Assembly: GCF_055900595.2 (NCBI RefSeq)
Contig: NZ_CM148325.1
Reading direction: 5' to 3' (one strand)
DNA length: 64,000 bases
Under the pieces are notes generated by a model. That model did no database searches and was not told the origin of the DNA. It saw only the letters and a program-made list of their open reading frames with translations. Numbering within the stretch: the first letter of the stretch is position 1; each line of letters starts with the position of its first letter. A program made the translations under genes and the position numbers. Below, in pieces: positions 19,045 through 64,000 of the stretch.

Positions 19045-19112
19045 GAGAAAACCCCCGCACGTTGCAGATATTCACCTGACAACATCACGGGGGCTAATCT
19101 TGAACCTAGACC
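19045..19112 (-). ncRNA. rdlD: candidate Rdl antisense RNA, module 1 (approximate ends)
   Basis: minus-strand hairpin CGGGGG...CCCCCG (19052-19093) followed by T-run; upstream on minus strand a candidate promoter TTGTAA-17-TATTCT; about 65 nt, antisense to the ldr leader. Confidence 0.45.
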
Positions 19113-19159
19113 ACTCAAGAATAGCCGCGAAACGTTGTCATTACAACACAGGCGGCTAT

Positions 19160-19267
19160 ATGACGCTCGCAGAACTGGGCATGGCCTTCTGGCATGATTT
19201 AGCGGCTCCGGTCATCGCTGGCATTCTTGCCAGCATGATCGTGAACTGGCTGAATAAGCGGAAGTAA
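19160..19267 (+). CDS. ldrD: LdrD-type type I toxin peptide, module 1 (35 aa)
   Basis: MTLAELGMAFWHDLAAPVIAGILASMIVNWLNKRK; single TM helix with basic C-terminus; recognised as Ldr family. Confidence 0.85.
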   Translation: MTLAELGMAFWHDLAAPVIAGILASMIVNWLNKRK

Positions 19268-19317
19268 CGTGTCAGACGGGCGTCAGGCTGCCGTAATGGC
19301 AATTTGCGCCCGGACCA

Positions 19318-19349
19318 GGCCGCAGGGATAAAACTCTGCGGCCTTTTTC
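19318..19349 (+). terminator. intrinsic terminator of ldr mRNA, module 1 (equivalents at about 19801, 20285, 20768)
   Basis: GGCCGCAGGGATAAAACTCTGCGGCC hairpin followed by TTTTT. Confidence 0.75.
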
Positions 19350-19527
19350 GTAAGAAAAATGCAACGGTTGCAAGCGGATAATATTCTGCGGAATGCGCAG
19401 CACAGAGTGAAGAAGTGACGGATTCCGGAACAGAAAAACAGTCGTAGAATCAGCGGCAAGCCGGAAGGGTTCCGGTGAGGCGCAATGTTGCGGGGGCTTT
19501 ATCCCTGGTGGCATTGGGTGCTGGAGA

Positions 19528-19595
19528 GAGAAAACCCCCGCACGTTGCAGGTATGCACCTGACAACACCACGGGGGCCATTCTTGCATCCAAACA
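19528..19595 (-). ncRNA. rdlD: candidate Rdl antisense RNA, module 2 (approximate ends)
   Basis: same architecture as module 1 shifted +483 bp; hairpin arms at 19535-19540 and 19571-19576; candidate -10 (plus-strand AGAATA) at 19601-19606. Confidence 0.45.
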
Positions 19596-19642
19596 ATACA
19601 AGAATAGCCGCGAAACGTTGTCATTACAACACAGGCGGCTAT

Positions 19643-19750
19643 ATGACGCTCGCAGAACTGGGCATGGCCTTCTGGCATGATTTAGCGGCTCCGGTCATTG
19701 CTGGCATTCTTGCCAGTCTGATCGTGAACTGGCTGAATAAGCGGAAGTAA
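19643..19750 (+). CDS. ldrD: LdrD-type type I toxin peptide, module 2 (35 aa)
   Basis: MTLAELGMAFWHDLAAPVIAGILASLIVNWLNKRK (M26L relative to module 1). Confidence 0.85.
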   Translation: MTLAELGMAFWHDLAAPVIAGILASLIVNWLNKRK

Positions 19751-20011
19751 CGTGTCAGACGGGCGTCAGGCTGCCGTAATGGCAATTTGCGCCCGGACCA
19801 GGCTGCAGGGATAAAACTCTGCGGCCTTTTTCGTAAGAAAAATGCAACGGTTGCAAGCGGATAATATTCTGCGGAATGCGCAGCACAGAGTGAAGAAGTG
19901 ATGGATTTCGACGAGCAAAAATGGCCGTAGAATCAGCGGCAAGCCGGAAGGGTTCCGGTGAGGCGCAATGTTGCGGGGGGCTTTATCCCTGGTGGCATTG
20001 GTTGCTGGAGA

Positions 20012-20079
20012 GAGAAAACCCCCGCACGTTGCAGGTATGCACCTGGCAACACCACGGGGGCCATTCTTGCATCTAGACC
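20012..20079 (-). ncRNA. rdlD: candidate Rdl antisense RNA, module 3 (approximate ends)
   Basis: hairpin arms at 20019-20024 and 20055-20060; -10 complement at 20085-20090. Confidence 0.45.
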
Positions 20080-20126
20080 ATTCAAGAATAGCCGTGAAAC
20101 GTTGTCATTACAACAGAGGCGGCTAT

Positions 20127-20234
20127 ATGACGCTCGCAGAACTGGGCATGGCCTTCTGGCATGATTTAGCGGCTCCGGTCATCGCTGGCATTCTTGCCAG
20201 TCTGATCGTGAACTGGCTGAACAAGCGGAAGTAA
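20127..20234 (+). CDS. ldrD: LdrD-type type I toxin peptide, module 3 (35 aa)
   Basis: MTLAELGMAFWHDLAAPVIAGILASLIVNWLNKRK. Confidence 0.85.
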   Translation: MTLAELGMAFWHDLAAPVIAGILASLIVNWLNKRK

Positions 20235-20494
20235 CGTGTCAGACGGGCGTCAGGCTGCCGTAATGGCAATTTGCGCCCGGATCAGGCCGCAGGGATAAAA
20301 CTCTGCGGCCTTTTTCGTAAGAAAAATGCAACGGTTGCAAGCGGATAATATTCTGCGGAATGCGCAGCACAGAGTGAAGAAGTGACGGATTCCGGAACAG
20401 AAAAACAGTCGTAGAATCAGCGGCAAGCCGGAAGGGTTCCGGTGAGGCGCAATGTTGCGGGGGCTTTATCCCTGGTGGCATTGGTTGCTGGAGA

Positions 20495-20562
20495 GAGAAA
20501 ACCCCCGCATATTGCAGGTATGCACCTGACAACATCACGGGGGCCATTCTTGAACCTACACA
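20495..20562 (-). ncRNA. rdlD: candidate Rdl antisense RNA, module 4 (approximate ends)
   Basis: periodic equivalent of modules 1-3; the -10 complement here reads AGAGTA, a weaker match. Confidence 0.4.
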
Positions 20563-20609
20563 ACTCAAGAGTAGCCGCGAAACGTTGTCATTACAACACT
20601 GGCGGCTAT

Positions 20610-20717
20610 ATGACGCTCGCAGAGCTGGGCATGGCCTTCTGGCACGATTTAGCGGCTCCGGTCATTGCTGGCATTCTTGCCAGTCTGATCGTGAACTGGC
20701 TGAACAAGCGGAAGTAA
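20610..20717 (+). CDS. ldrD: LdrD-type type I toxin peptide, module 4 (35 aa)
   Basis: MTLAELGMAFWHDLAAPVIAGILASLIVNWLNKRK. Confidence 0.85.
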   Translation: MTLAELGMAFWHDLAAPVIAGILASLIVNWLNKRK

Positions 20718-20977
20718 CGTGTCGGACGAGCGTCAGGCTGCCGTAATGGCAATTTGCGCCCGGACCAGGCCGCAGGGATAAAACTCTGCGGCCTTTTTCG
20801 TAAGAAAAATGCAACGGTTGCAAGCGGATAATATTCTGCGGAATGCGCAGCACAGAGTGAAGAAGTGACGGATTCCGGAACAGAAAAACAGTCGTAGAAT
20901 CAGCGGCAAGCCGGAAGGGTTCCGGTGAGGCGCAATGTTGCGGGGGCTTAATCCCTGGTGGCATTGGTTGCTGGAGA

Positions 20978-21045
20978 GAGAAAACCCCCGCACGTTGCAG
21001 GTATGCACCTGACAACATCACGGGGGCTAATCTTGAACCCAAACA
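20978..21045 (-). ncRNA. rdlD: candidate Rdl antisense RNA, module 5 (approximate ends)
   Basis: periodic equivalent; position relative to the ldr ORF and bcsG matches the K-12 ldrD/rdlD arrangement as I recall it. Confidence 0.45.
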
Positions 21046-21092
21046 ACTCAAGAATAGCCGCGAAACGTTGTCACTACAACAGAGGCGGCTAT

Positions 21093-21200
21093 ATGACGCT
21101 CGCAGAACTGGGCATGTCCTTCTGGCATGATTTAGCGGCTCCGGTCATTGCTGGCATTCTTGCCAGTCTGATCGTGAACTCGCTGAATAAGCGGAAGTAA
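21093..21200 (+). CDS. ldrD: LdrD-type type I toxin peptide, module 5, variant (35 aa)
   Basis: MTLAELGMSFWHDLAAPVIAGILASLIVNSLNKRK; A9S and W30S relative to modules 2-4. Confidence 0.75.
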   Translation: MTLAELGMSFWHDLAAPVIAGILASLIVNSLNKRK

Positions 21201-51922: not shown

Positions 51923-53320
51923 ATGAAAATGGTCTCACGTATTACCGCGATCGGCCTGGCTGGCGTCGCGATTTGCTATTTAGGGTTATCTGGTTATGTG
52001 TGGTACCACGATAATAAACGCAGTAAACAGGCCGATGTTCAGGCATCTGCTGTCAGTGAAAATAATCAGGTTTTAGGTTTTCTTCGCGAAAAAGGATGCG
52101 ACTATTGTCATACGCCTTCGGCAGAATTACCCGCCTATTATTATATTCCTGGCGCGAAACAGTTGATGGATTACGACATTAAGCTTGGATATAAATCTTT
52201 TAACCTCGAGGCCGTGCGTGCGGCTCTGTTGGCAGATAAACCCGTTTCGCAAAGCGATCTGAATAAGATTGAATGGGTGATGCAGTATGAAACTATGCCA
52301 CCAACGCGTTATACCGCGCTACACTGGGCGGGTAAGGTGAGTGATGAAGAGCGGGCGGAAATACTTGCCTGGATTGCAAAACAGCGCGCGGAATATTACG
52401 CCAGTAATGATACTGCTCCGGAGCATCGCAATGAACCGGTGCAGCCTATTCCGCAAAAACTACCTACCGATGCGCAAAAAGTGGCGTTGGGTTTTGCGCT
52501 GTATCATGATCCCCGTTTATCGGCTGATAGCACCATTTCATGTGCACATTGCCATGCGTTAAATGCGGGTGGCGTTGATGGTAGAAAAACGTCGATTGGT
52601 GTTGGTGGTGCCGTTGGGCCGATTAACGCACCAACGGTCTTTAACTCAGTATTTAACGTTGAGCAGTTCTGGGATGGTCGTGCGGCAACATTGCAGGATC
52701 AGGCGGGTGGACCGCCGTTGAACCCGATTGAAATGGCGTCGAAATCCTGGGACGAAATTATTGCTAAGCTGGAAAAAGATCCGCAGCTTAAAGCGCAGTT
52801 CCTCGAAGTCTATCCGCAAGGTTTCAGTGGCGAAAATATTACTGATGCTATTGCTGAATTTGAGAAAACATTAATTACGCCGGATTCCCCATTTGATAAA
52901 TGGTTGCGTGGAGATGAGAATGCGCTGACGGTGCAACAGAAAAAAGGCTATCAATTATTTAAAGATAATAAATGTGCAACTTGTCATGGTGGTATTATTC
53001 TCGGCGGACGTTCTTTCGAGCCGTTGGGGCTGAAAAAAGACTTTAACTTTGGTGAAATTACGGCGGCGGATATTGGTCGTATGAATGTTACTAAAGAAGA
53101 GCGTGATAAATTGCGTCAGAAAGTACCCGGTTTACGTAACGTTGCTTTAACGGCACCGTACTTCCATCGCGGTGACGTGCCGACGCTGGACGGGGCGGTA
53201 AAACTGATGCTGCGCTATCAGGTAGGCAAAGAGCTGCCGCAGGAGGATGTGGATGATATCGTAGCTTTCCTGCACAGTCTGAACGGGGTATATACGCCGT
53301 ATATGCAGGATAAACAATAA
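51923..53320 (+). CDS. ccp: cytochrome c peroxidase (di-/tri-haem)
   Basis: 465-aa ORF with several CxxCH haem motifs (CDYCH, CAHCH, CATCH); recognised as YhjA/Ccp. Confidence 0.9.
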   Translation: MKMVSRITAIGLAGVAICYLGLSGYVWYHDNKRSKQADVQASAVSENNQVLGFLREKGCDYCHTPSAELPAYYYIPGAKQLMDYDIKLGYKSFNLEAVRAALLADKPVSQSDLNKIEWVMQYETMPPTRYTALHWAGKVSDEERAEILAWIAKQRAEYYASNDTAPEHRNEPVQPIPQKLPTDAQKVALGFALYHDPRLSADSTISCAHCHALNAGGVDGRKTSIGVGGAVGPINAPTVFNSVFNVEQFWDGRAATLQDQAGGPPLNPIEMASKSWDEIIAKLEKDPQLKAQFLEVYPQGFSGENITDAIAEFEKTLITPDSPFDKWLRGDENALTVQQKKGYQLFKDNKCATCHGGIILGGRSFEPLGLKKDFNFGEITAADIGRMNVTKEERDKLRQKVPGLRNVALTAPYFHRGDVPTLDGAVKLMLRYQVGKELPQEDVDDIVAFLHSLNGVYTPYMQDKQ

Positions 53321-53330
53321 TTAATTTGAT

Positions 53331-53361
53331 CGCCCAAACAGGAATGTTTGGGCGATTTTTA
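53331..53361 (+). terminator. intrinsic terminator after ccp
   Basis: CGCCCAAACA GGAA TGTTTGGGCG hairpin followed by ATTTTTATT. Confidence 0.7.
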
Positions 53362-53431
53362 TTACGACAATAAAGTCTGTTTTTAATATTATCATGTTAA
53401 ATGTTTATATTATAAAAAGTCGTTTTTCTGC

Positions 53432-53451
53432 TTAGGATTTTGTTATTTAAA
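53432..53451 (+). promoter_or_regulatory. GAD box (GadX/GadW site) in the gadA promoter
   Basis: TTAGGATTTTGTTATTTAAA, the 20-bp gad box as I recall it, about 80 bp upstream of the gadA ATG. Confidence 0.75.
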
Positions 53452-53530
53452 TTAAGCCTGTAATGCCTTGCTTCCATTGCGGATAAATCCTACTTTTTTA
53501 TTGCCTTCAAATAAATTTAAGGAGTTCGAA

Positions 53531-54931
53531 ATGGACCAGAAGCTGTTAACGGATTTCCGCTCAGAACTACTCGATTCACGTTTTGGCGCAAAGGCCATTT
53601 CTACTATCGCGGAGTCAAAACGATTTCCGCTGCACGAAATGCGTGATGATGTCGCATTCCAGATTATCAATGATGAATTATATCTTGATGGCAACGCTCG
53701 TCAGAACCTGGCCACTTTCTGCCAGACCTGGGACGACGAAAACGTCCATAAATTGATGGATTTGTCGATCAACAAAAACTGGATCGACAAAGAAGAATAT
53801 CCGCAATCTGCAGCTATCGACCTGCGTTGCGTAAACATGGTTGCTGACCTGTGGCATGCGCCTGCGCCAAAAAACGGTCAGGCCGTTGGCACCAACACCA
53901 TTGGCTCTTCCGAGGCCTGTATGCTCGGCGGGATGGCGATGAAATGGCGTTGGCGCAAGCGTATGGAAGCCGCAGGCAAGCCAACGGATAAACCTAATCT
54001 GGTGTGCGGCCCGGTACAAATCTGCTGGCATAAATTCGCCCGTTACTGGGATGTGGAGCTGCGTGAAATCCCTATGCGCCCCGGTCAGTTGTTTATGGAT
54101 CCGAAACGCATGATTGAAGCCTGCGACGAAAACACCATCGGCGTGGTGCCGACTTTCGGCGTGACCTACACCGGTAACTATGAATTCCCGCAACCGCTGC
54201 ATGATGCACTGGATAAATTCCAGGCCGACACCGGTATCGACATCGACATGCACATCGACGCCGCCAGCGGTGGCTTCCTGGCACCGTTCGTTGCCCCGGA
54301 TATCGTCTGGGACTTCCGCCTGCCACGTGTGAAATCGATCAGTGCTTCAGGCCACAAATTCGGTCTGGCTCCGCTGGGCTGCGGCTGGGTTATCTGGCGT
54401 GACGAAGAAGCGCTGCCGCAGGAACTGGTATTCAACGTTGACTACCTCGGTGGTCAGATTGGCACTTTCGCCATCAACTTCTCCCGTCCGGCGGGCCAGG
54501 TAATTGCACAGTACTACGAGTTCTTGCGCCTCGGTCGTGAAGGCTATACCAAAGTACAGAACGCTTCCTACCAGGTAGCTGCCTATCTGGCAGATGAAAT
54601 CGCCAAACTGGGGCCGTATGAGTTCATCTGTACGGGTCGCCCGGACGAAGGCATCCCGGCGGTTTGCTTCAAACTGAAAGATGGTGAAGATCCGGGATAC
54701 ACCCTGTATGACCTCTCTGAACGTCTGCGTCTGCGCGGCTGGCAGGTTCCGGCTTTCACTCTCGGCGGTGAAGCCACCGACATCGTGGTGATGCGCATTA
54801 TGTGCCGTCGTGGCTTCGAAATGGACTTTGCTGAACTGTTACTGGAAGACTACAAAGCCTCCCTGAAATACCTCAGCGATCACCCGAAACTGCAGGGTAT
54901 AGCCCAGCAGAACAGCTTTAAACACACCTGA
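53531..54931 (+). CDS. gadA: glutamate decarboxylase A (PLP-dependent)
   Basis: ORF-track 53468..54931 trimmed to ATG 53531 ([23 protein letters not shown]...), 466 aa. Confidence 0.93.
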
Positions 54932-54950
54932 TAACATAATTTTGTAAAAA

Positions 54951-54995
54951 CCGAATGCCCCGACCTTAAAAAACAGGTGGGGCATTCGGTTACTT
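54951..54995 (+). terminator. candidate terminator after gadA
   Basis: CCGAATGCCCC...GGGGCATTCGG hairpin followed by TTACTTATT. Confidence 0.5.
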
Positions 54996-55299
54996 ATTAA
55001 TGCAATAATATATTGGCTGTTTATTCATCGTGTTGATAAGATATATGTTATATGAATGTTATTAAGGGTGGCGAGACCGTTTAATATCACAATAAGGGAT
55101 TATTTGCTTACTAATAATTTCCCTGCGTTTTTAACGCCTTTTTTTGTATTATAAATCCAGTTATCCAGCCCGACTATCATCACACATCATCATCCTGTTT
55201 TCCCGCTTCGTTTAAATTTATTTATCAATCAATTTGACTTAAGAGGGCGGCGTGCTACATTAATAAACAGTAATATGTTTATGTAATATTAAGCCGACT

Positions 55300-56124
55300 A
55301 TGCAATCACTACATGGTAATTGTCTAATTGCGTACGCAAGACATAAATATATTCTCACCATGGTTAATGGTGAATATCGCTATTTTAATGGCGGTGAACT
55401 GGTTTTTGCGGATGCAAGTCAAATTCAAGTGGATAAGTGTGTCGAGAATTTTGTATTAGTTTCAAGGGACACGCTTTCATTATTTCTCCCGATGCTCAAG
55501 GAGGAGGCATTAAATCTTCATGCACATAAAAAAGTTCCTTCGTTACTCGTTCATCACTGTACCAGAGATATTCCTGTTTTTCAGGAGGTTGCGCAACTAT
55601 CGCAGAATAAGAATCTGCGCTATGCAGAAATGCTCCGTAAAAGAGCATTAATCTTTGCGTTGTTATCTGTTTTCCTGGAGGACGAGCAGTTTATACCGCT
55701 GCTTCTGAACGTTTTGCAACCGAACATGCGAACACGAGTTTGTACGGTCATCAATAATAATATCGCCCATGAGTGGACATTAGCCCAAATCGCCAGCGAG
55801 CTGTTGATGAGTTCAAGCCTGTTAAAGAAAAAATTGCGCGAAGAAGGTACGTCATATTCACAGTTGCTTACTGAGTGTAGAATGCAACGTGCTTTGCAAC
55901 TTATTGTTATACATGGTTTTTCAATTAAGCGAGTTGCAGTGTCCTGTGGTTATCACAGCGTGTCGTATTTCATTTACGTTTTTCGAAATTATTATGGGAT
56001 GACGCCCACAGAGTATCAGGAGCGATCGGCACAAGGATTGCCGAACCGTGACTCGGCGGCAAGTATTGTTGCGCAAGGGAATTTTTACGGTACTAACTAT
56101 TCTGCGGAAGAAATAAGATTATAG
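55300..56124 (+). CDS. gadX: AraC-family acid-resistance regulator
   Basis: 274-aa ORF recognised as GadX. Confidence 0.9.
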   Translation: MQSLHGNCLIAYARHKYILTMVNGEYRYFNGGELVFADASQIQVDKCVENFVLVSRDTLSLFLPMLKEEALNLHAHKKVPSLLVHHCTRDIPVFQEVAQLSQNKNLRYAEMLRKRALIFALLSVFLEDEQFIPLLLNVLQPNMRTRVCTVINNNIAHEWTLAQIASELLMSSSLLKKKLREEGTSYSQLLTECRMQRALQLIVIHGFSIKRVAVSCGYHSVSYFIYVFRNYYGMTPTEYQERSAQGLPNRDSAASIVAQGNFYGTNYSAEEIRL

Positions 56125-56140
56125 TTTTTACCCAGACATA

Positions 56141-56245
56141 AAAAAAACCCGGCATAGGGGACCGGGAAGAGGATAGTCTGCCGTCTCCAGACTAATAAAC
56201 CGTTATAACACTCCCTGTTGGCACGGGAAACTTTGTGCTCTCAGT
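56141..56245 (-). ncRNA. gadY: GadY small RNA (approximate ends)
   Basis: minus-strand hairpin CCCGGTCCCCTATGCCGGG followed by an 8-T run lies about 20 nt beyond the gadX stop, matching the known GadY 3' end; the 5' end is estimated from the roughly 105-nt size I recall. Confidence 0.5.
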
Positions 56246-56491
56246 AAGTTAAATATAACTTTTACTGGAGATAAGATCAGCCATTTTTTTATAAACATAA
56301 GCTATGCGCTGTGTGAAAATATATTCTTCTTGCATTTTCTTATTATCAATTAACTGTTATGTCAAACTACTTTTTGGATAACTTTTGGTCCTACCAAATA
56401 TGGCAGTTTATGCACGAAGAAGCGGTCTGGCATCATTTCATTAGTATACTGAAATTGAAATAATCGCAGTAATGAAATATAAGGGATAGTC

Positions 56492-57220
56492 ATGACTCAT
56501 GTCTGCTCGGTGATCCTCGTTCGTCGTTCATTGGATATTCATCATGAACAGCAAAAAATATCGTTGCACAACGAAAGTATTCTACTGCTGGATAAAAATT
56601 TGGCAGACGATTTTGCGTTTTGTTCACCGGATACACGACGACTGGATATCGATGAGCTGACAGTTTGCCATTACTTACAAAATATTCGTCAGTTACCGCG
56701 CAATTTAGGGTTACATAGCAAAGACCGTTTGTTAATTAACCAGTCCCCCCCCATGCCTCTGGTGACGGCGATTTTTGATAGTTTCAATGAATCCGGGGTA
56801 AATTCGCCGATAATGAGCAAGATGCTTTACCTTTCCTGTTTATCAATGTTTTCTCATAAGAAAGAACTTATCCCCTTACTTTTCAATAGTATCAGTACTG
56901 TTTCAGGAAAAGTTGAACGCCTTATTAGCTTTGATATCGCTAAACGTTGGTATCTACGCGATATCGCGGAAAGAATGTATACCAGCGAGAGTCTCATCAA
57001 AAAAAAGTTGCAGGATGAAAATACCTGTTTCAGTAAAATATTACTCGCCTCCAGGATGTCGATGGCCAGACGATTACTCGAGTTACGTCAAATTCCTCTA
57101 CATACTATTGCAGAAAAATGTGGGTATAGCAGTACGTCGTACTTTATAAACACATTTCGACAATATTATGGTGTAACGCCACATCAGTTTGCGCAACATT
57201 CGCCAGGTACCTTTTCCTGA
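56492..57220 (+). CDS. gadW: AraC-family acid-resistance regulator
   Basis: 242-aa ORF recognised as GadW. Confidence 0.9.
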   Translation: MTHVCSVILVRRSLDIHHEQQKISLHNESILLLDKNLADDFAFCSPDTRRLDIDELTVCHYLQNIRQLPRNLGLHSKDRLLINQSPPMPLVTAIFDSFNESGVNSPIMSKMLYLSCLSMFSHKKELIPLLFNSISTVSGKVERLISFDIAKRWYLRDIAERMYTSESLIKKKLQDENTCFSKILLASRMSMARRLLELRQIPLHTIAEKCGYSSTSYFINTFRQYYGVTPHQFAQHSPGTFS

Positions 57221-57582
57221 CATATTTCGCATTTGAATATTGGTCAGGATCTCACACGTGCTTCATGTGAAACTCTTCCCTGATGATTTCTGCCGGGCTA
57301 CCGGCTAGTTCTCTTTCGCAGTATGCCATGCGGTATAGGTATTTTCAGGAGGAAAAGACTCGGCATGTTTGGGATTATTAAGCTGACAATTCATACGATT
57401 ACGGGAATGTGGGTCAGTATTGTGCTGTTCAAATTGATGACGAATGGCTGGAGTGGTTTTTACTTTCAGTGCTGTGTACTAAGCCTGGTATTCCTGACGG
57501 TTAGCTGGTTGTTGAGTGGTGAATGGTTAGCAGGAAAGAGTAAGGCTGAACCCTCACGTTCAACCTTACTCTCATTTACACG

Positions 57583-60500
57583 TTACGCTTTTTTAAAGCG
57601 GGCAAAGAGATGTTCCACTACAACGAAAAAGACTGGAACGAAGTAAATGGCCAGCACTGTTGCGGCAAACATCCCGCCCATCACGCCGGTACCTACCGCG
57701 TTTTGCGCGCCAGAACCTGCGCCGTGGCTGATTACCAGCGGCAACACGCCGAGAATAAAGGCCAGAGAGGTCATCAGGATTGGGCGTAAACGCATCCGCG
57801 CCGCTTCGATGATTGCCTCTATCGGCGTTTTCCCTTCTTTCTGCATCATCTCAACGGCAAATTCGACGATCAGGATGGCGTTCTTGGCGGAAAGCCCGAT
57901 GGTAGTCAGCAAACCAACCTGGAAGTAGACGTCATTACTTAAGCCGCGCAGATCGGTGGCCAGTAATGCGCCAACGACACCTAACGGTACAACCAACATC
58001 ACCGAGAACGGAATTGACCAGCTCTCATAAAGTGCGGCAAGGGCGAGGAACACCACGACCAGTGAAATGGCATACAGCGCGGGAGCCTGGTTTGAGGATA
58101 ACGCTTCCTGATACGACAGTCCGGTCCACGAGTAGCCGACGCCTGCCGGAAGTTTAGCGACCAGGTCTGCCATAAATTTCATAGCGTCACCGGTACTTTT
58201 CCCGGCCGCCGCTTCACCTAAAATCTCCATTGACGGGATGCCGTTGTAGCGTTCCAGTCGCGGTGAACCATAGGTCCATTCGGTAGACGAATAGGCCGAA
58301 AGCGGTGCCATCGTGCCAGAGGCGTTGCGTACATACCACTGGTTGATGTTATCCGGCAACATACGGAACGGCGTGCCTGCCTGGACATACACTTTTTTCA
58401 CCCGCCCCTGGTTGAGGAAGTCGTTCACGTAGCTGCTGCCGAAGGCGGTGGAAATTGTCTGGTTGATATCAGACAGCGTCACACCCATTGCCTCGGCTTT
58501 CGCGGCGTTGACGTTCACTTTGAACATCGGCGTATCTTCCAGTCCGTTCGGGCGTACCCCGGTGACCTGATTCGGTGATTGCGCTGCCAGTGATAATAGC
58601 TCGTTTCGCGCCTGGGTCAGTTTTTCGTGCCCTAAGTTGCCGTTGTCCAGCAGTTCCATATCAAAACCTGACGCGGTACCCAGTTCAGCCACCGCGGGTA
58701 AGTTGAACGGGAAGACGACGGCTTTATTGATACTGCTTAACGCAATCATTGCCCGCTGAATGATCGCGGTAACCGAGTTTTCCTCACCGACACGTTCAGA
58801 CCACGGTTTGAGGCTGATAAACGCCAGACCGTTGTTTTGCCCCTGGCCACTGAAGCCAAAGCCGCCAACGGTAAACACCGACTGAACATTATCTTTCTCT
58901 TTTGTCAGATAATAATCAGTCACCTGTTGCAGCACTTTCGTGGTGTTAACCATGGTTGCACCGGAAGGTAACTGCGCGGTGGTCATAAATACCCCCTGAT
59001 CCTCTTCTGGTAAGAAAGAGGTCGGCGTACGCAGGAACAGCACTGCCATCCCGGCGCAAATCAGCAGGTAGACCACCATGTAGCGACCGGTACAACGCAA
59101 CAGCGAGCGGGTGCTATCGGTATAGTGATGAGTCGATTTTTCAAACAGCGTGTTGAAGCGTGCGAACAGGGCGTTAGGTTTGTGACCGCCTTCCGGCGCG
59201 GCTTTCAGAATGGTGGCGCACAGGGCAGGGGTCAGGCTCATTGCGACAAATACTGAAAGCAGCATCGAGGAGATCAGCGTGATGGAGAACTGACGATAAA
59301 TTTCCCCGGTCGCGCCGCTCATAAAGGCCATTGGCATAAACACCGCGGAAAGCACAACGGCAATCCCGACCAGAGCGCGTTGGATTTGCCCCATGGATTT
59401 ATGCGTTGCTTCCTTCGGCGGCAGTTTATCCTCCGCTATCACGCGCTCGACGTTTTCTACCACCACGATGGCGTCATCCACCAACAACCCTATCGCCAGC
59501 ACCATCCCGAACATGGTGAGGGTGTTGATGGTGAAACCGACCGCCGACAAGATCGCAAACGTCCCGAGAATAACCACCGGTACGGCAATCGTCGGGATGA
59601 TTGTGGCACGGAAATTCTGCAAAAACAGATACATGACCAGGAAGACGAGGATGATAGCCTCAACCAGTGTTTTGAAAACTTCCTGAATAGAAATTTCGAT
59701 AAACGGCGTCGTGTCGTAAGGATAAACCGTCTTCAGACTTGCGGGGAAATAGGCTGATAGGCGGTTTAGCTCCTCTTTGACTGCCCGTGAGGTATCCAGG
59801 GCATTTGCTCCGGTAGCCAGTTTGATGGCGATCCCGGCAGCAGGTTTGCCGTTATAGCGCGCCACGGTGGAATAATCTTCCGCCCCAAGTTCGACGCGGG
59901 CGACATCACGCAGCAGCACTTGCGAGCCATCTTGCTGAACTTTCAACAGGATTTTGCCAAATTCTTCCGGCGTTTGCAGACGCGTCTGCACAATGATCGA
60001 GGCGTTCAGTTGCTGGTCTGCCGCCTGTGGCATGCCACCCAGTTGACCACCAGAAATCTGGTTGTTTTGCACCTTAATCTGGGAAATAACATCGGAAGGT
60101 ACCAGGTTGTATTTATTGAGTTTTTGCGGGTCCAGCCAGATACGCATGGCATACTCGGAACCAAAGAGTTGTACGCTACCAACGCCCGCGGTACGGCTTA
60201 GCGGGTCTTTGATATTAGACGCTACATAGTCCGCGATATCGTACTGGTTGAGACTGCCGTTATCAGAAATGAACGCCGCTACCATCAGGATATTACTGCT
60301 CGACTTATCGACGCTAATCCCCTGCTGCTGCACCGCTTCAGGTAATGAAGGCATAGCGAGTTGCAGTTTATTTTGCACCTGAACCTGCGCGATATCAGGC
60401 GATGTCCCCGTCTCAAAGGTCAGAGTGATGGAGGCATTACCCGCCGCATCGCTGGTTGAAGACATGTACATCAGGCCATCAAGCCCATTCATATTTTGCT

Positions 60501-60696
60501 CAATCACCTGAGTGACCGAGTCTTCTACCGTTTGCGCATCGGCACCCGGATAGGTTGCGCTGACGGTAATGGTTGGTGGCGCAATCTGCGGATATTGCGC
60601 AACCGGTAAGTTCATGATCGCCAGACCACCTGCAAGCATCATAATAATGGCAAGTACCCAGGCAAAAACCGGGCGATCAATAAAATAGTTAGCCAT
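57583..60696 (-). CDS. mdtF: RND multidrug efflux pump, inner-membrane transporter
   Basis: 1037-aa [27 protein letters not shown]..., AcrB family. Confidence 0.93.
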
Positions 60697-60720
60697 GAAA
60701 GTCCCCTTAAGCCTGCAACG

Positions 60721-61878
60721 TTATTGTTTCGATTCGGTGCTGGCGTTTTCCTGGCTGGAGGAAATTGCACGTGCTTTGATACCCGGATGAATACGTTGCA
60801 AACCGGAAACGATCACCCGATCGCCAGCCTGCAAACCAGAAGTGACAACCCACTGGTCGCCGATGGCTTTGCTGGCTTCAATTTCGCGTAGCTGCACGAC
60901 ATCGTCTTTATCCAGAATGAGCGCCGTTGCTTTACCCTGGGCGTTGTGGGTGACGCCTTCCTGCGGCACCAGTAATACATTCTGGCGGCTACCTTCATCC
61001 ACTAATGCCGTGACATACATGCCAGGCAGCAAGTCACCATTTGGGTTGGGGAAAATCGCCCGTAACGTCACGGAGCCCGTGGTTTCATCCACCGTCGGGT
61101 CGGAGAATTTCAGCGTGCCGGTCTGGCCGTAACGTTTACCATTTTCCAGATTGAGCTGTACTGGCGTACTGCCCTGAACCTGTTTGATTTGCCCACTGGC
61201 GACCTCTTCTTTCATGCGCAAAAAATCCTGCACCGACTGCGTGAGATCGACATAAATCGGGTCCAGACGTTGTACGGTAACCAGCGAATCTGCCTGATTA
61301 GCGGTAACGAGTGCGCCGACGGTCACCGACGATTTCCCGCTGACGCCCGTAATCGGCGAGGTGACATTTGCGTATTGCAGGTTGATCGTCGCCTGTTCAA
61401 CAGCCGCTTTGGCGACGGTGACATTGGCTTCTGCCTCATTCAGCTGGGTGCGCGCGGTGTCGTAATCCTGACGGCTAACGTAGTTGGTCTTCAGCAACGA
61501 TGCCTGGCGGTTAAAGGTGATGCGGGCATTGCTGGCGGTAGAGAGCGCTTTCGCCAGCGTGCCTTTGGCGGAGTTCAGCTCGGCCTGTAAAGGTGCAGGA
61601 TCAATCTGATACAGCGAATCGCCCTGGTTCACTTTATCGCCTTCGATAAAGTTGCGTTTAATGATAATACCGCCCACCTGAGGGCGTATCTCGGCAACTT
61701 CATAAGGAACGGTTCTACCAGGCAATTCGCTCAACACATTGACCGAACCGGGGGAGAGTGTGACGACACCGACCTCAGGCGTCATGGCGGCGGCGTTTTC
61801 CGTCGATTTGTCATCGCAGGCGGTGAGCATCGCGCCGCAGAATAACAACGGTATTAACAGTTTTCTTCTTCTGTTCAT
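60721..61878 (-). CDS. mdtE: RND efflux periplasmic adaptor (membrane fusion protein)
   Basis: 385-aa ORF with lipoprotein signal (…MLTAC), AcrA family. Confidence 0.92.
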   Translation of the reverse strand: MNRRRKLLIPLLFCGAMLTACDDKSTENAAAMTPEVGVVTLSPGSVNVLSELPGRTVPYEVAEIRPQVGGIIIKRNFIEGDKVNQGDSLYQIDPAPLQAELNSAKGTLAKALSTASNARITFNRQASLLKTNYVSRQDYDTARTQLNEAEANVTVAKAAVEQATINLQYANVTSPITGVSGKSSVTVGALVTANQADSLVTVQRLDPIYVDLTQSVQDFLRMKEEVASGQIKQVQGSTPVQLNLENGKRYGQTGTLKFSDPTVDETTGSVTLRAIFPNPNGDLLPGMYVTALVDEGSRQNVLLVPQEGVTHNAQGKATALILDKDDVVQLREIEASKAIGDQWVVTSGLQAGDRVIVSGLQRIHPGIKARAISSSQENASTESKQ

Positions 61879-62216
61879 TTTAGTCCCTGAAAATTCTTGA
61901 GATATAACGGTTCTTTAAATTGCGCGCGAGGAGAGGTATGAGGGATTTACAGACCAGCGGCATAGTGGGGTTGTCAGCCAGTAAGATGGGATGCAAGCAC
62001 AGTGATCGACATGGTGAGGTCAACGACAAAAAAAATGTTGCCGTTCTGCCAACAGTTCCTGCCAGCATTCGGGCAACGAAGGGTTCTACTGGTGGATACA
62101 CATACCAGGGGAATAAAGTCGTTTTCGCCTCTCCTTTAGTCATCACCGGGGATAATGAAATCAGCATCTGCATCCCTCTTCATGCCTGCCATCATTTTCA
62201 GTTAATTATGTCCTGA

Positions 62217-62744
62217 CTAAAAATAAGATGTGATACCCAGGGTGACGATGTCGCTCATACGTCTTAGTTTCAGCTTGTACATAATGTTGAATTTCTGAAT
62301 CTTTAATGTTTGTTGCGAAATATTGAGCGTTGACGTGATATTGCTTTCGTTTTTGTTTTTCAGAATCAGCTGCATAATTTTGAACTGATTATGTGAAAAA
62401 CATAATTGTGAATTCTTATGGGGCAAGTGTTTACCATAAGTAATCTCAAGAAGATTTTTGATACTTTCTTTGCGGCTGACAAAATAAATAGGCGCTTTAG
62501 CTTTTAGTTTACTGATGTGATAAGGTGCCAAAACAATAATTCTCTCGGCGTCTAATTTCTCCAGAAATTTAATCGCTTCTTCATCAAGGATATGGTTGTG
62601 ATAGGTATCAATGATAACCTTGAAGGGTTTATTACCTACTTTTTTGATCTCTGACAGGGAATTGATTTTTATCATTTCGTGATTATCTTTCAACTGCCAA
62701 AAGCCCTGTAAAAGAAAAGAATCTTTCGTCATGAGAAAAATCAT
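62217..62744 (-). CDS. gadE: LuxR-family acid-resistance activator
   Basis: ORF-track 62217..62822 trimmed to internal Met at 62744 (MIFLMTKDSFLLQGFWQL...), 175 aa. Confidence 0.88.
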   Translation of the reverse strand: MIFLMTKDSFLLQGFWQLKDNHEMIKINSLSEIKKVGNKPFKVIIDTYHNHILDEEAIKFLEKLDAERIIVLAPYHISKLKAKAPIYFVSRKESIKNLLEITYGKHLPHKNSQLCFSHNQFKIMQLILKNKNESNITSTLNISQQTLKIQKFNIMYKLKLRRMSDIVTLGITSYF

Positions 62745-63542
62745 AACTTGCTCCTTAGCCGTTATCGTTTCGAACATGTCATCCTTTTCATTATTTACAT
62801 CCCTGTCCGAATCGTTGTTCAATATAGTAAACGCCTATAAGAACCTTGCCCTTCGTGAACTAATACGTCTATTAACACTAATCAATACTTCAGATTTATC
62901 CATCACGCACTCCATATATTGATCCTAAGTAAAATTCCTGGTTGTTATCAGATTGTAAACTGCAAGCAAAAAATTAACGTTTGCGGATTACTGCCCAAGA
63001 ATAAGTTATCAATAACCAGTTTGTGATCTCTGAAGAATATTACTAAAGTTAAAATGTAATCCGATTTAAATATCGAGTCTCCTTGTTTCGACTTAAGCTG
63101 GCAATTGGATTGCCAGCTTTCTTTTAACGCATTGAAATTACCTGAGTAAATAACTCATTCATGTCTTCAGGTTTTTATATAGCGTCTGGAGACACGGATA
63201 TTTATGCAATGTAATCAACGCCAGTTGCAAAAAAATGAACCCGGATTACTTATTTAACCGCCCATAGCATCAACGTTTACGGAACTCTTTGTTCACTTTC
63301 CCACAGCACTTTTAAAACATTAAACCTGACTACGGAAAATATCAGCCATGATAATGTTTGAAATGGCTAATTTGCCATGCAATGAAAAAAATCAGATAAA
63401 ATTCAGTAGGTTGAAATACTCATCAGCAGGTAATTATTTCAATGATAGCGCGCAATTGATCTAAAATGCTGTGTAGCGGAGAGAGTATTAATTGGATCAT
63501 AGTCACATCAAGTGACTATGATCCAGGTGGCAATAGGGATAA

Positions 63543-64000
63543 TTATTGCTTTTTAACAAACAAACTGGCGAAGCTGAACAGGCTAGCGGCGCTAAATATC
63601 AGTTCAATTCCCACTAGTGTGGAAACCAGCGTTACAGAAACCATCGGCGTTGCACCAAGGAATATCCAGGCAATGACGATATCCAGCACACCAATAACGA
63701 GCTGTAGCCAACTGCCTTTCATTGAACGCTGACGATACCAACTCATCAGGCGAATAACTCCTGCCACACAGAACAAACCGGCAATAAATGCCGCAATGGC
63801 AAAAATGCCCAGCTCCGGTGCGCGGATGAAGAAATAGCCGATCAATAAATAGGCGACTGCGACGAGGAAACCGGATAATACCGGCCAGAAATTATGACTG
63901 CGGTTGCTGAATAGCCCGACAATAAGCGCAATGCCCGAGCAGATTAATAATGCACCCACTACTGTGCTTAAAATATCGCCAGAGACGAACGGAAAACTGA
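63543..64000 (-). CDS. hdeD: acid-resistance membrane protein HdeD (partial; 5' end beyond window edge)
   Basis: C-terminal region …VGALLICSGIALIVGLFSNRSHNFWPVLSGFLVAVAYLLIGYFF… to stop at 63543; the reading frame stays open to the window end. Confidence 0.8.
   Translation of the reverse strand, partial: SFPFVSGDILSTVVGALLICSGIALIVGLFSNRSHNFWPVLSGFLVAVAYLLIGYFFIRAPELGIFAIAAFIAGLFCVAGVIRLMSWYRQRSMKGSWLQLVIGVLDIVIAWIFLGATPMVSVTLVSTLVGIELIFSAASLFSFASLFVKKQ

Follow-up and report, generated by a model that had tools for sequence, protein, structure and literature searches.

In Escherichia coli K-12, the acid fitness island (AFI), counted as 12 proteins and one small RNA (sRNA) (PMC2887963), is among the best-studied regulatory loci of this species. 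We herein analyzed a 64,000-nucleotide stretch of contig NZ_CM148325.1 from assembly GCF_055900595.2 (the whole stretch is referred to as the window), of which positions 53321-64000 (10,680 bases; referred to as the segment) had been assigned to the known AFI in a first-pass annotation made from the sequence alone. All of the gene calls on which this assignment was based (gadA, gadX, gadW, mdtEF, gadE, and hdeD) agreed with K-12, RefSeq, NCBIfam, and Pfam, and the accompanying judgement that the locus is known and not novel was in line with existing annotations and the literature; only one half of the island is contained in the segment. In alignments with K-12 and RefSeq genomes, the genes were in the order gadA-gadX-gadW / mdtF-mdtE-gadE-hdeD, adjoining ccp-treF, and the other AFI genes (hdeA, hdeB, and yhiD; dctR and slp in K-12) are located past window position 64000. 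We estimate a probability of approximately 97% that the segment represents the gadA-side half of the E. coli AFI in an intact, already known, and ordinary form. Comparison with K-12 directly established gene identity, order, and intactness, and showed that the cis-elements and sRNA genes are present and exactly conserved. Some points weigh against this assignment: GadX has 14 amino acid changes relative to K-12; hdeD and the hdeAB-yhiD side extend outside the window; and, because of the changes in GadX together with divergence in the distal part of the gadA-gadX spacer, quantitative regulation might differ from that in K-12.

When 5,426 complete E. coli genomes were searched by megablast, the segment was present in 5,425, with annotated gadA, gadX, gadW, mdtF, mdtE, gadE, and hdeD. 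It was colinear, in reverse orientation, with b3517-b3511 of K-12 MG1655 (NC_000913.3; 3,656,995-3,667,580) with 96.4% identity; the indels in this alignment were single bases found only in the spacers, and none was located within any coding sequence. An allele with at least 99% identity was found in only 8 of the 5,426 genomes, and the nearest genome, NZ_CP098223.1 (strain Z0117EC0005, from a dog in South Korea), differed by 2 nucleotides over the segment. Since the upstream 51 kb of the window diverged from K-12 to the same degree as the segment (95.8-97.0% identity), this difference was attributed to the divergence of the lineage and not to a foreign island, and the possibility of a foreign or odd allele was ruled out on the same grounds. 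As judged from these identities, the source is a rare, fairly deep-branching lineage of E. coli.

The six complete genes of the segment (gadA, gadX, gadW, mdtF, mdtE, and gadE) all had the same lengths as in K-12, ATG starts, and zero internal stop codons. Their products were assigned using the equivalog or subfamily cut-offs of NCBIfam (GadA, GadX, MdtE, and MdtF, and also HdeD) or the cut-offs of Pfam (GadE and GadW), all of which were passed. On the plus strand, gadA (53531-54931) encodes glutamate decarboxylase A of 466 amino acids (TIGR01788; 693 bits against a cut-off of 380), the sequence of which was 100% identical to that of K-12 in spite of 51 synonymous differences; it is followed by gadX (55300-56124; 274 amino acids) for an AraC-family activator (NF007432; 592 bits against 500) and gadW (56492-57220; 242 amino acids) for an AraC-family regulator (Pfam HTH_18; 50.8 against 33.6). 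On the minus strand, mdtF (57583-60696) encodes the permease of a resistance-nodulation-division multidrug efflux pump (1037 amino acids with 99.7% identity to K-12; TIGR00915, 1704 bits against 940), mdtE (60721-61878) encodes the periplasmic adaptor of the pump (385 amino acids with 99.0% identity to K-12; NF007362, 873 bits against 738), and gadE (62217-62744; G+C content of 0.337) encodes the LuxR-family master activator (175 amino acids; Pfam GerE, 26.3 against 23.5), which was 100% identical to that of K-12 with 8 synonymous changes. A later start of mdtE, giving 370 amino acids, in the annotation of NZ_CP098223.1 by the Prokaryotic Genome Annotation Pipeline (PGAP) was not favored: the NF007362 equivalog was matched end to end by the 385-amino acid form (1-385 of 385), in agreement with the K-12 annotation.

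The proposal that all of the components are intact was borne out by these six full-length genes and requires a qualification for hdeD, which is cut by the end of the window: the C-terminal 152 of the 190 codons are contained in it (63543 to beyond 64000, minus strand; NF007577, 241 bits against 189, profile positions 41-190), with the remainder past the window end. A premature stop in hdeD, as suggested by the listing of 63543-63959 as an open reading frame (ORF) of 138 amino acids, was rejected: the frame is open up to the edge of the window, and the listing begins at the first start codon within it. In the near-identical NZ_CP098223.1, hdeD is full-length at the same place.

No disrupted or missing regulator was detected by alignment, and GadE, GadX, and GadW were all full-length with 100, 94.9, and 97.5% identity to K-12, respectively. 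The ratios of nonsynonymous to synonymous substitution rates (dN/dS) relative to K-12 were 0.00-0.15 for gadA, gadW, and gadX, and 0.00-0.06 for gadE, mdtE, and mdtF, while synonymous divergence (dS) in gadA, gadX, and gadW was approximately 0.16-0.18 per site. Judged by its amino acid differences, GadX evolves faster than any other protein of the segment, and 5 of these differences were found among its last 30 residues. These substitutions, the strongly diverged gadA-gadX spacer, and the restriction of the allele (at 99% identity or higher) to 8 genomes may also be regarded as signs of a decaying or rewired island variant of a rare lineage, in which the regulators have been mis-called as intact. 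However, neither a stop nor a frameshift was found, and the dN/dS value of 0.10-0.17 for gadX indicates purifying selection. Furthermore, the divergence of the spacer (approximately 11%) is near the dS of the neighboring genes and, therefore, looks near-neutral, and the conserved 100 bp adjacent to gadX and all of the known promoters and sRNAs are kept. We consider such a variant to be very improbable, and retain the assignment as an intact AFI.

The decarboxylase gene has a close paralogue elsewhere in the K-12 genome, and the locus may alternatively be that of gadBC or a gadA/gadB hybrid. In support of this, gadA and gadB of K-12 are 97.8% identical and, at nucleotides 270-1371, agree with each other against the gadA of the window at 48 sites. 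On the other hand, the first 245 nucleotides and the last two informative sites were gadA-specific (28 sites at which the window was the same as gadA and 3 at which it was the same as gadB), the 210-bp upstream region was 98.6% identical to that of gadA and 47.6% identical to that of gadB, and the gene is flanked by ccp and gadX instead of gadC and pqqL. Synteny and the signature at the 5' end refute the paralogue or hybrid, to which we assign almost no probability, and the decarboxylase gene of the window is gadA by these sequence characters. The first 245 nucleotides are gadA-specific in both the window strain and K-12, while the 48 sites shared by the two K-12 genes point to gene conversion between the paralogues within lineages; concerted evolution of gadA and gadB has reportedly been described by Bergholz et al. 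in 2007.

In K-12, the heterodimer of GadE and RcsB binds to the GAD box, which has its center 63 bp upstream of the start site of gadA and is separated by 16 bp from the -35 element downstream of it (PMC2887963). The GAD box that had been proposed upstream of gadA at 53432-53451 (plus strand) in the window was an exact match (20/20) to the sequence TTAGGATTTTGTTATTTAAA, and is the predicted GadE/RcsB site for the activation of gadA. No other match was found in the 64 kb, even when 3 mismatches were allowed, and none of 100 shuffled sequences was matched. The 20-base query was a consensus of the field, which the text of PMC2887963 does not contain (zero occurrences); in K-12, these 20 bases are present upstream of both gadA and gadB. 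The box is followed after 16 bp by a -35 hexamer, TTGCTT (53468-53473), and, after a 17-bp spacer, by TACTTT (53491-53496); the predicted start site at approximately 53504 would place the center of the box at approximately -62.5. The surrounding region (53400-53599) was 100% identical to K-12, such that the binding of the heterodimer, shown for the K-12 sequence (PMC2887963), concerns an identical site.

The second regulatory region is the spacer between hdeD and gadE (62745-63542, minus strand), the control or "sensory integration" region of gadE. The first-pass annotation had described an AT-rich region of approximately 800 bp, and the actual length was exactly 798 bp (G+C content of 0.357), the same as that reported for the "unusually long gadE promoter" with start sites at -124, -324/-317, and -566 (PMC3708157). 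These start sites mapped to 62868 (T1, -124), 63061/63068 (T2, -317/-324), and 63310 (T3, -566), and zero differences from K-12 were found within -45 to +5 of T1, T2, and T3. The differences were unevenly distributed: 2 were located at positions -230 to -634 and 29 elsewhere (P = 1e-7, against K-12), and 19 of the 31 were clustered in the 165 bp adjoining hdeD.

Three sRNA genes known from K-12 were also mapped. GadY (56140-56245, minus strand), a cis-antisense, Hfq-binding sRNA of the gadX-gadW spacer that is antisense to the 3' untranslated region (UTR) of gadX, was identified by both the K-12 gadY annotation and Rfam (RF00122 at 56135-56248, minus strand; 150 bits against a gathering score of 45, E = 1.6e-32). 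The match extended over the full length of the model (1-114), with the terminator and each of the three stems included, and its position on the strand opposite to gadX is the canonical one. The GadY-type antisense terminator that had been placed at about 56141 was found there: the terminator (56140-56166) consists of a stem at 56148-56166 and a T-run (T8) at 56140-56147, and its end is 16 nucleotides past the gadX stop codon (ending at 56124). All 106 nucleotides of GadY were identical to those of K-12, with no detectable difference, in contrast to 21 differences in the other 261 nucleotides of the spacer (Fisher P = 0.0009), and GadY was 97-99% identical in cryptic Escherichia clades, in which the rest of the spacer was 75-83% identical. 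Opdyke et al. (2004 and 2011) are said to have described base-pairing of GadY with the 3' UTR and processing by RNase III. ArrS (63056-63125, plus strand), antisense to the long gadE 5' UTR, was located by mapping the K-12 annotation (b4704); it showed zero differences from K-12 and 96-97% identity in the cryptic clades, has a predicted terminator at 63095-63119 with an 11-bp stem (fold z of -3.35), and yielded no match in the Rfam search of the window. GadF (62028-62118, minus strand), which corresponds to ES205 of Rfam, is located in the gadE 3' UTR and was mapped from the K-12 annotation (b4718) with zero differences; RF02754 matched at 62028-62099 with 105 bits against a cut-off of 86. Taken together, GadY, ArrS, and GadF contained zero differences from K-12 in 267 nucleotides against 65 in the other 1,236 nucleotides of the spacers (Fisher P = 3e-6). 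In E. marmotae and two further genomes of the cryptic clades, the identity of the three sRNAs was still 86-99%, against approximately 70-83% for the flanking spacer. A further Rfam match, to a Tetrahymena snoRNA at 63433-63544, was attributed to chance (26 bits against a cut-off of 100, E = 0.99) and covers the hdeD terminator hairpin. ArrS and GadF, both of which are known, were absent from the first-pass annotation, as was the conserved unannotated ORF93 described below.

The spacer between gadA and gadX was the most obvious departure from K-12 among the regions weighed above: identity was 88.6% for the whole spacer and 85-88% in 100-nucleotide windows of its distal part, and 4,641 of 5,409 genomes were 80-90% identical to it. 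A stable hairpin is located directly past the gadA stop codon (54949-54991, plus strand; -29.6 kcal/mol, z of -6.7) and may form the 3' end of gadA or a partial terminator before gadX; a T-run follows it when the minus strand is read. The hairpin of K-12 is just as stable (-28.9), and the changes at the top of the stem are paired, thereby keeping the helix. At the other end of the spacer, the gadX-proximal 100 bp were 97% conserved relative to K-12 and contain a promoter-like site of gadX, TTGACT-16-TACATT (55234-55261, plus strand). These patterns suggest constraint only on the hairpin near gadA and on the 100 bp next to gadX. The idea of a special hypervariable element was discarded, since the divergence of the spacer is about equal to that at synonymous sites.

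We infer that the segment is expressed and acts as in K-12. According to the scheme established for K-12, gadE would be transcribed from several promoters in the 798-bp AT-rich, H-NS-silenced region downstream of hdeD, and GadE together with RcsB would bind to the GAD box, approximately 63 bp upstream of where gadA transcription starts, and thereby turn on glutamate decarboxylase. Additional input to gadA and gadE would come from GadX and GadW, both regulators of the AraC type. GadY would pair with the gadX 3' UTR and increase gadX mRNA levels, with the gadX(-gadW) mRNA as its target; a positive effect of GadY on gadX mRNA has been described (PMC4574537). Post-transcriptional control would be added by ArrS, encoded opposite the long leader of gadE, and by GadF, cut from the gadE 3' UTR, in accordance with the reported roles of ArrS and GadF, the processing of the latter from the gadE 3' UTR, and action both in cis and in trans (PMC5145812). 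Finally, mdtEF would be co-transcribed with gadE from the gadE promoter, as has been reported (PMC3708157).

The only new lead of the segment was found in the convergent spacer between gadW and mdtF. The identity of this 362-bp spacer was 97.8% with K-12 and 95-99% with 5,400 of 5,414 genomes; by this measure, it is too conserved for a neutral spacer. It contains a conserved ORF of 93 amino acids (57365-57646, plus strand; complement of 3663464..3663745 in K-12; referred to as ORF93), the last 64 nucleotides of which overlap the 3' end of mdtF on the opposite strand. ORF93 has no annotation in K-12, NZ_CP098223.1, or most RefSeq genomes, and no Pfam or NCBIfam family was matched; these points would also be expected if the conserved sequence were a non-coding element, such as the 3' UTR of gadW or mdtF, a terminator region, or an sRNA. 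On the other hand, no Rfam family was matched over the ORF93 sequence, which weighs against such an element. AGGAGG (57347-57352) and the ATG codon are invariant among the window, K-12, E. marmotae CP025979, Escherichia sp. E2593, and GCA_013066125, although the spacing of 12 nucleotides between the two is long for a Shine-Dalgarno sequence, which favors the non-coding alternative.

Substitution patterns argue for a coding gene. The Nei-Gojobori dN/dS values of ORF93 were 0.09, 0.19, 0.07, and 0.25; dS reached 0.92, the binomial P values ranged from 1.4e-9 to 0.003, and the variable columns were distributed among the three codon positions as 19/7/35. The other five frames over the same sequence gave dN/dS values of 0.15-12; the antisense mirror frame was also rather low (0.15-0.5), which is again compatible with a non-coding element, but the value was lowest of all six in the ORF93 frame. 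Two neighboring ORFs of similar size, used as negative controls, had no coding signal of this type. K-12, three genomes of the cryptic clades, and E. fergusonii all have this frame open; in the last species, the homologue (54 amino acids, 49% identity) has a GTG start with no clear ribosome-binding site, and is located 19 nucleotides after the gadW orthologue, convergent with mdtF. It stays open there in spite of only 62% identity between the GadW proteins. Among 43 database homologues, the first 55-57 residues were kept while the tail was altered by frameshifts, and this variability, together with the overlap with mdtF, is the remaining point in favor of a non-coding element. Nevertheless, the motif GWSGF-F-CC was invariant, including in E. 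fergusonii. On balance, we consider a non-coding element to be unlikely and ORF93 to be probably a real coding gene.

The predicted ORF93 protein consists of two hydrophobic helices and a basic tail, with residues 1-57 as the core; the AlphaFold model, with three helices, was of low confidence (predicted local distance difference test score of 64). A profile search of 1.84 billion representative proteins yielded Escherichia sequences and fragments only, with no relatives outside this genus, and neither the peptide nor keywords for it were found in the literature searched or in one ribosome-profiling supplement searched. Standard data sets from log-phase cells show poor expression of the AFI. 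We tentatively propose, at slightly less than even odds, that the AFI holds an additional undescribed gene: ORF93, encoding a genus-wide small inner-membrane protein with a core of approximately 55 amino acids, two helices, GWSGF-F-CC, and a variable tail. It is located directly downstream of gadW, with which it is probably co-transcribed, and may, together with MdtEF or HdeD, contribute to acid or efflux physiology. A hairpin (57292-57305, plus strand; GCCGG-loop-CCGGC) is found 72 nucleotides past the gadW stop codon, with the stem kept and the loop varying across Escherichia lineages, and may function as an attenuator or terminator of gadW upstream of ORF93.

Two other candidates in the gadE-mdtE spacer, each longer than 90 codons, had no such support, and codon periodicity was absent from both. 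A "hypothetical protein" annotated by PGAP at 61938-62216 (plus strand) gave dN/dS values of 0.4-1.35 and is probably not a gene. ORF97 (61883-62173, minus strand), called by gene finders in the cryptic clades, had variable columns of 23/23/29 and dN/dS values of 0.36-1.0 and was similarly unsupported; it most likely represents no more than GadF and the leader of mdtE. At the left boundary of the segment, an intrinsic terminator of ccp (53328-53357, plus strand) has a 13-bp stem and a T-run; ccp itself (yhjA; 51923-53320) encodes a protein with 99.4% identity to that of K-12. Farther upstream, at 19046-21200 of the window, five tandem ldr/rdl type I toxin-antitoxin units are present with a period of approximately 483 bp, matching Rfam rdlD five times with 80-90 bits and containing one 35-amino acid Ldr ORF per copy, while K-12 has a single ldrD/rdlD at this locus.

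The re-identification of this locus intact in a rare lineage has little significance alone. It is useful as a positive control, since the coordinates of the first-pass annotation were accurate to the base, and as a small phylogenetic-footprint data set, in which the sRNAs, gadA promoter, and core of the gadE control region were far more conserved than synonymous sites and the distal gadA-gadX spacer drifted at about the neutral rate. If ORF93 is translated, the gene list of the AFI, a locus under dissection for 25 years, would become longer by one.

Compared with the AFI of K-12, the genes, their order, orientations, and lengths were the same, the spacer lengths were within 1-2 nucleotides, the sequences of the GAD box, GadY, ArrS, and GadF were identical, and the gadE control region was of the same 798 bp. 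The difference was a nucleotide divergence of 3.6%, nearly all of which was synonymous or in the distal spacers, with amino acid changes in GadX (14), GadW (6), MdtE (4), and MdtF (3). On the far side of the island, NZ_CP098223.1 has hdeA, hdeB, and yhiD followed by genes for a heme-uptake (chu/shu) ATP-binding cassette transporter, whereas K-12 has dctR-slp there. The AFI loci of the cryptic clades, E. marmotae, and E. fergusonii were 85-89% identical to the segment. In the cryptic-clade loci, approximately 100 bp of the region upstream of gadE is absent between ArrS and the T3 promoter (window 63135-63261); the ccp gene (window 51923-53320) is missing from between treF and gadA in E. marmotae and Escherichia sp. 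E2593, and E. fergusonii has neither gadA nor gadX at the AFI locus. The order gadW, small ORF, mdtF, mdtE, gadE, and hdeD was kept in the AFIs of the Escherichia cryptic clades, E. marmotae, and E. fergusonii.

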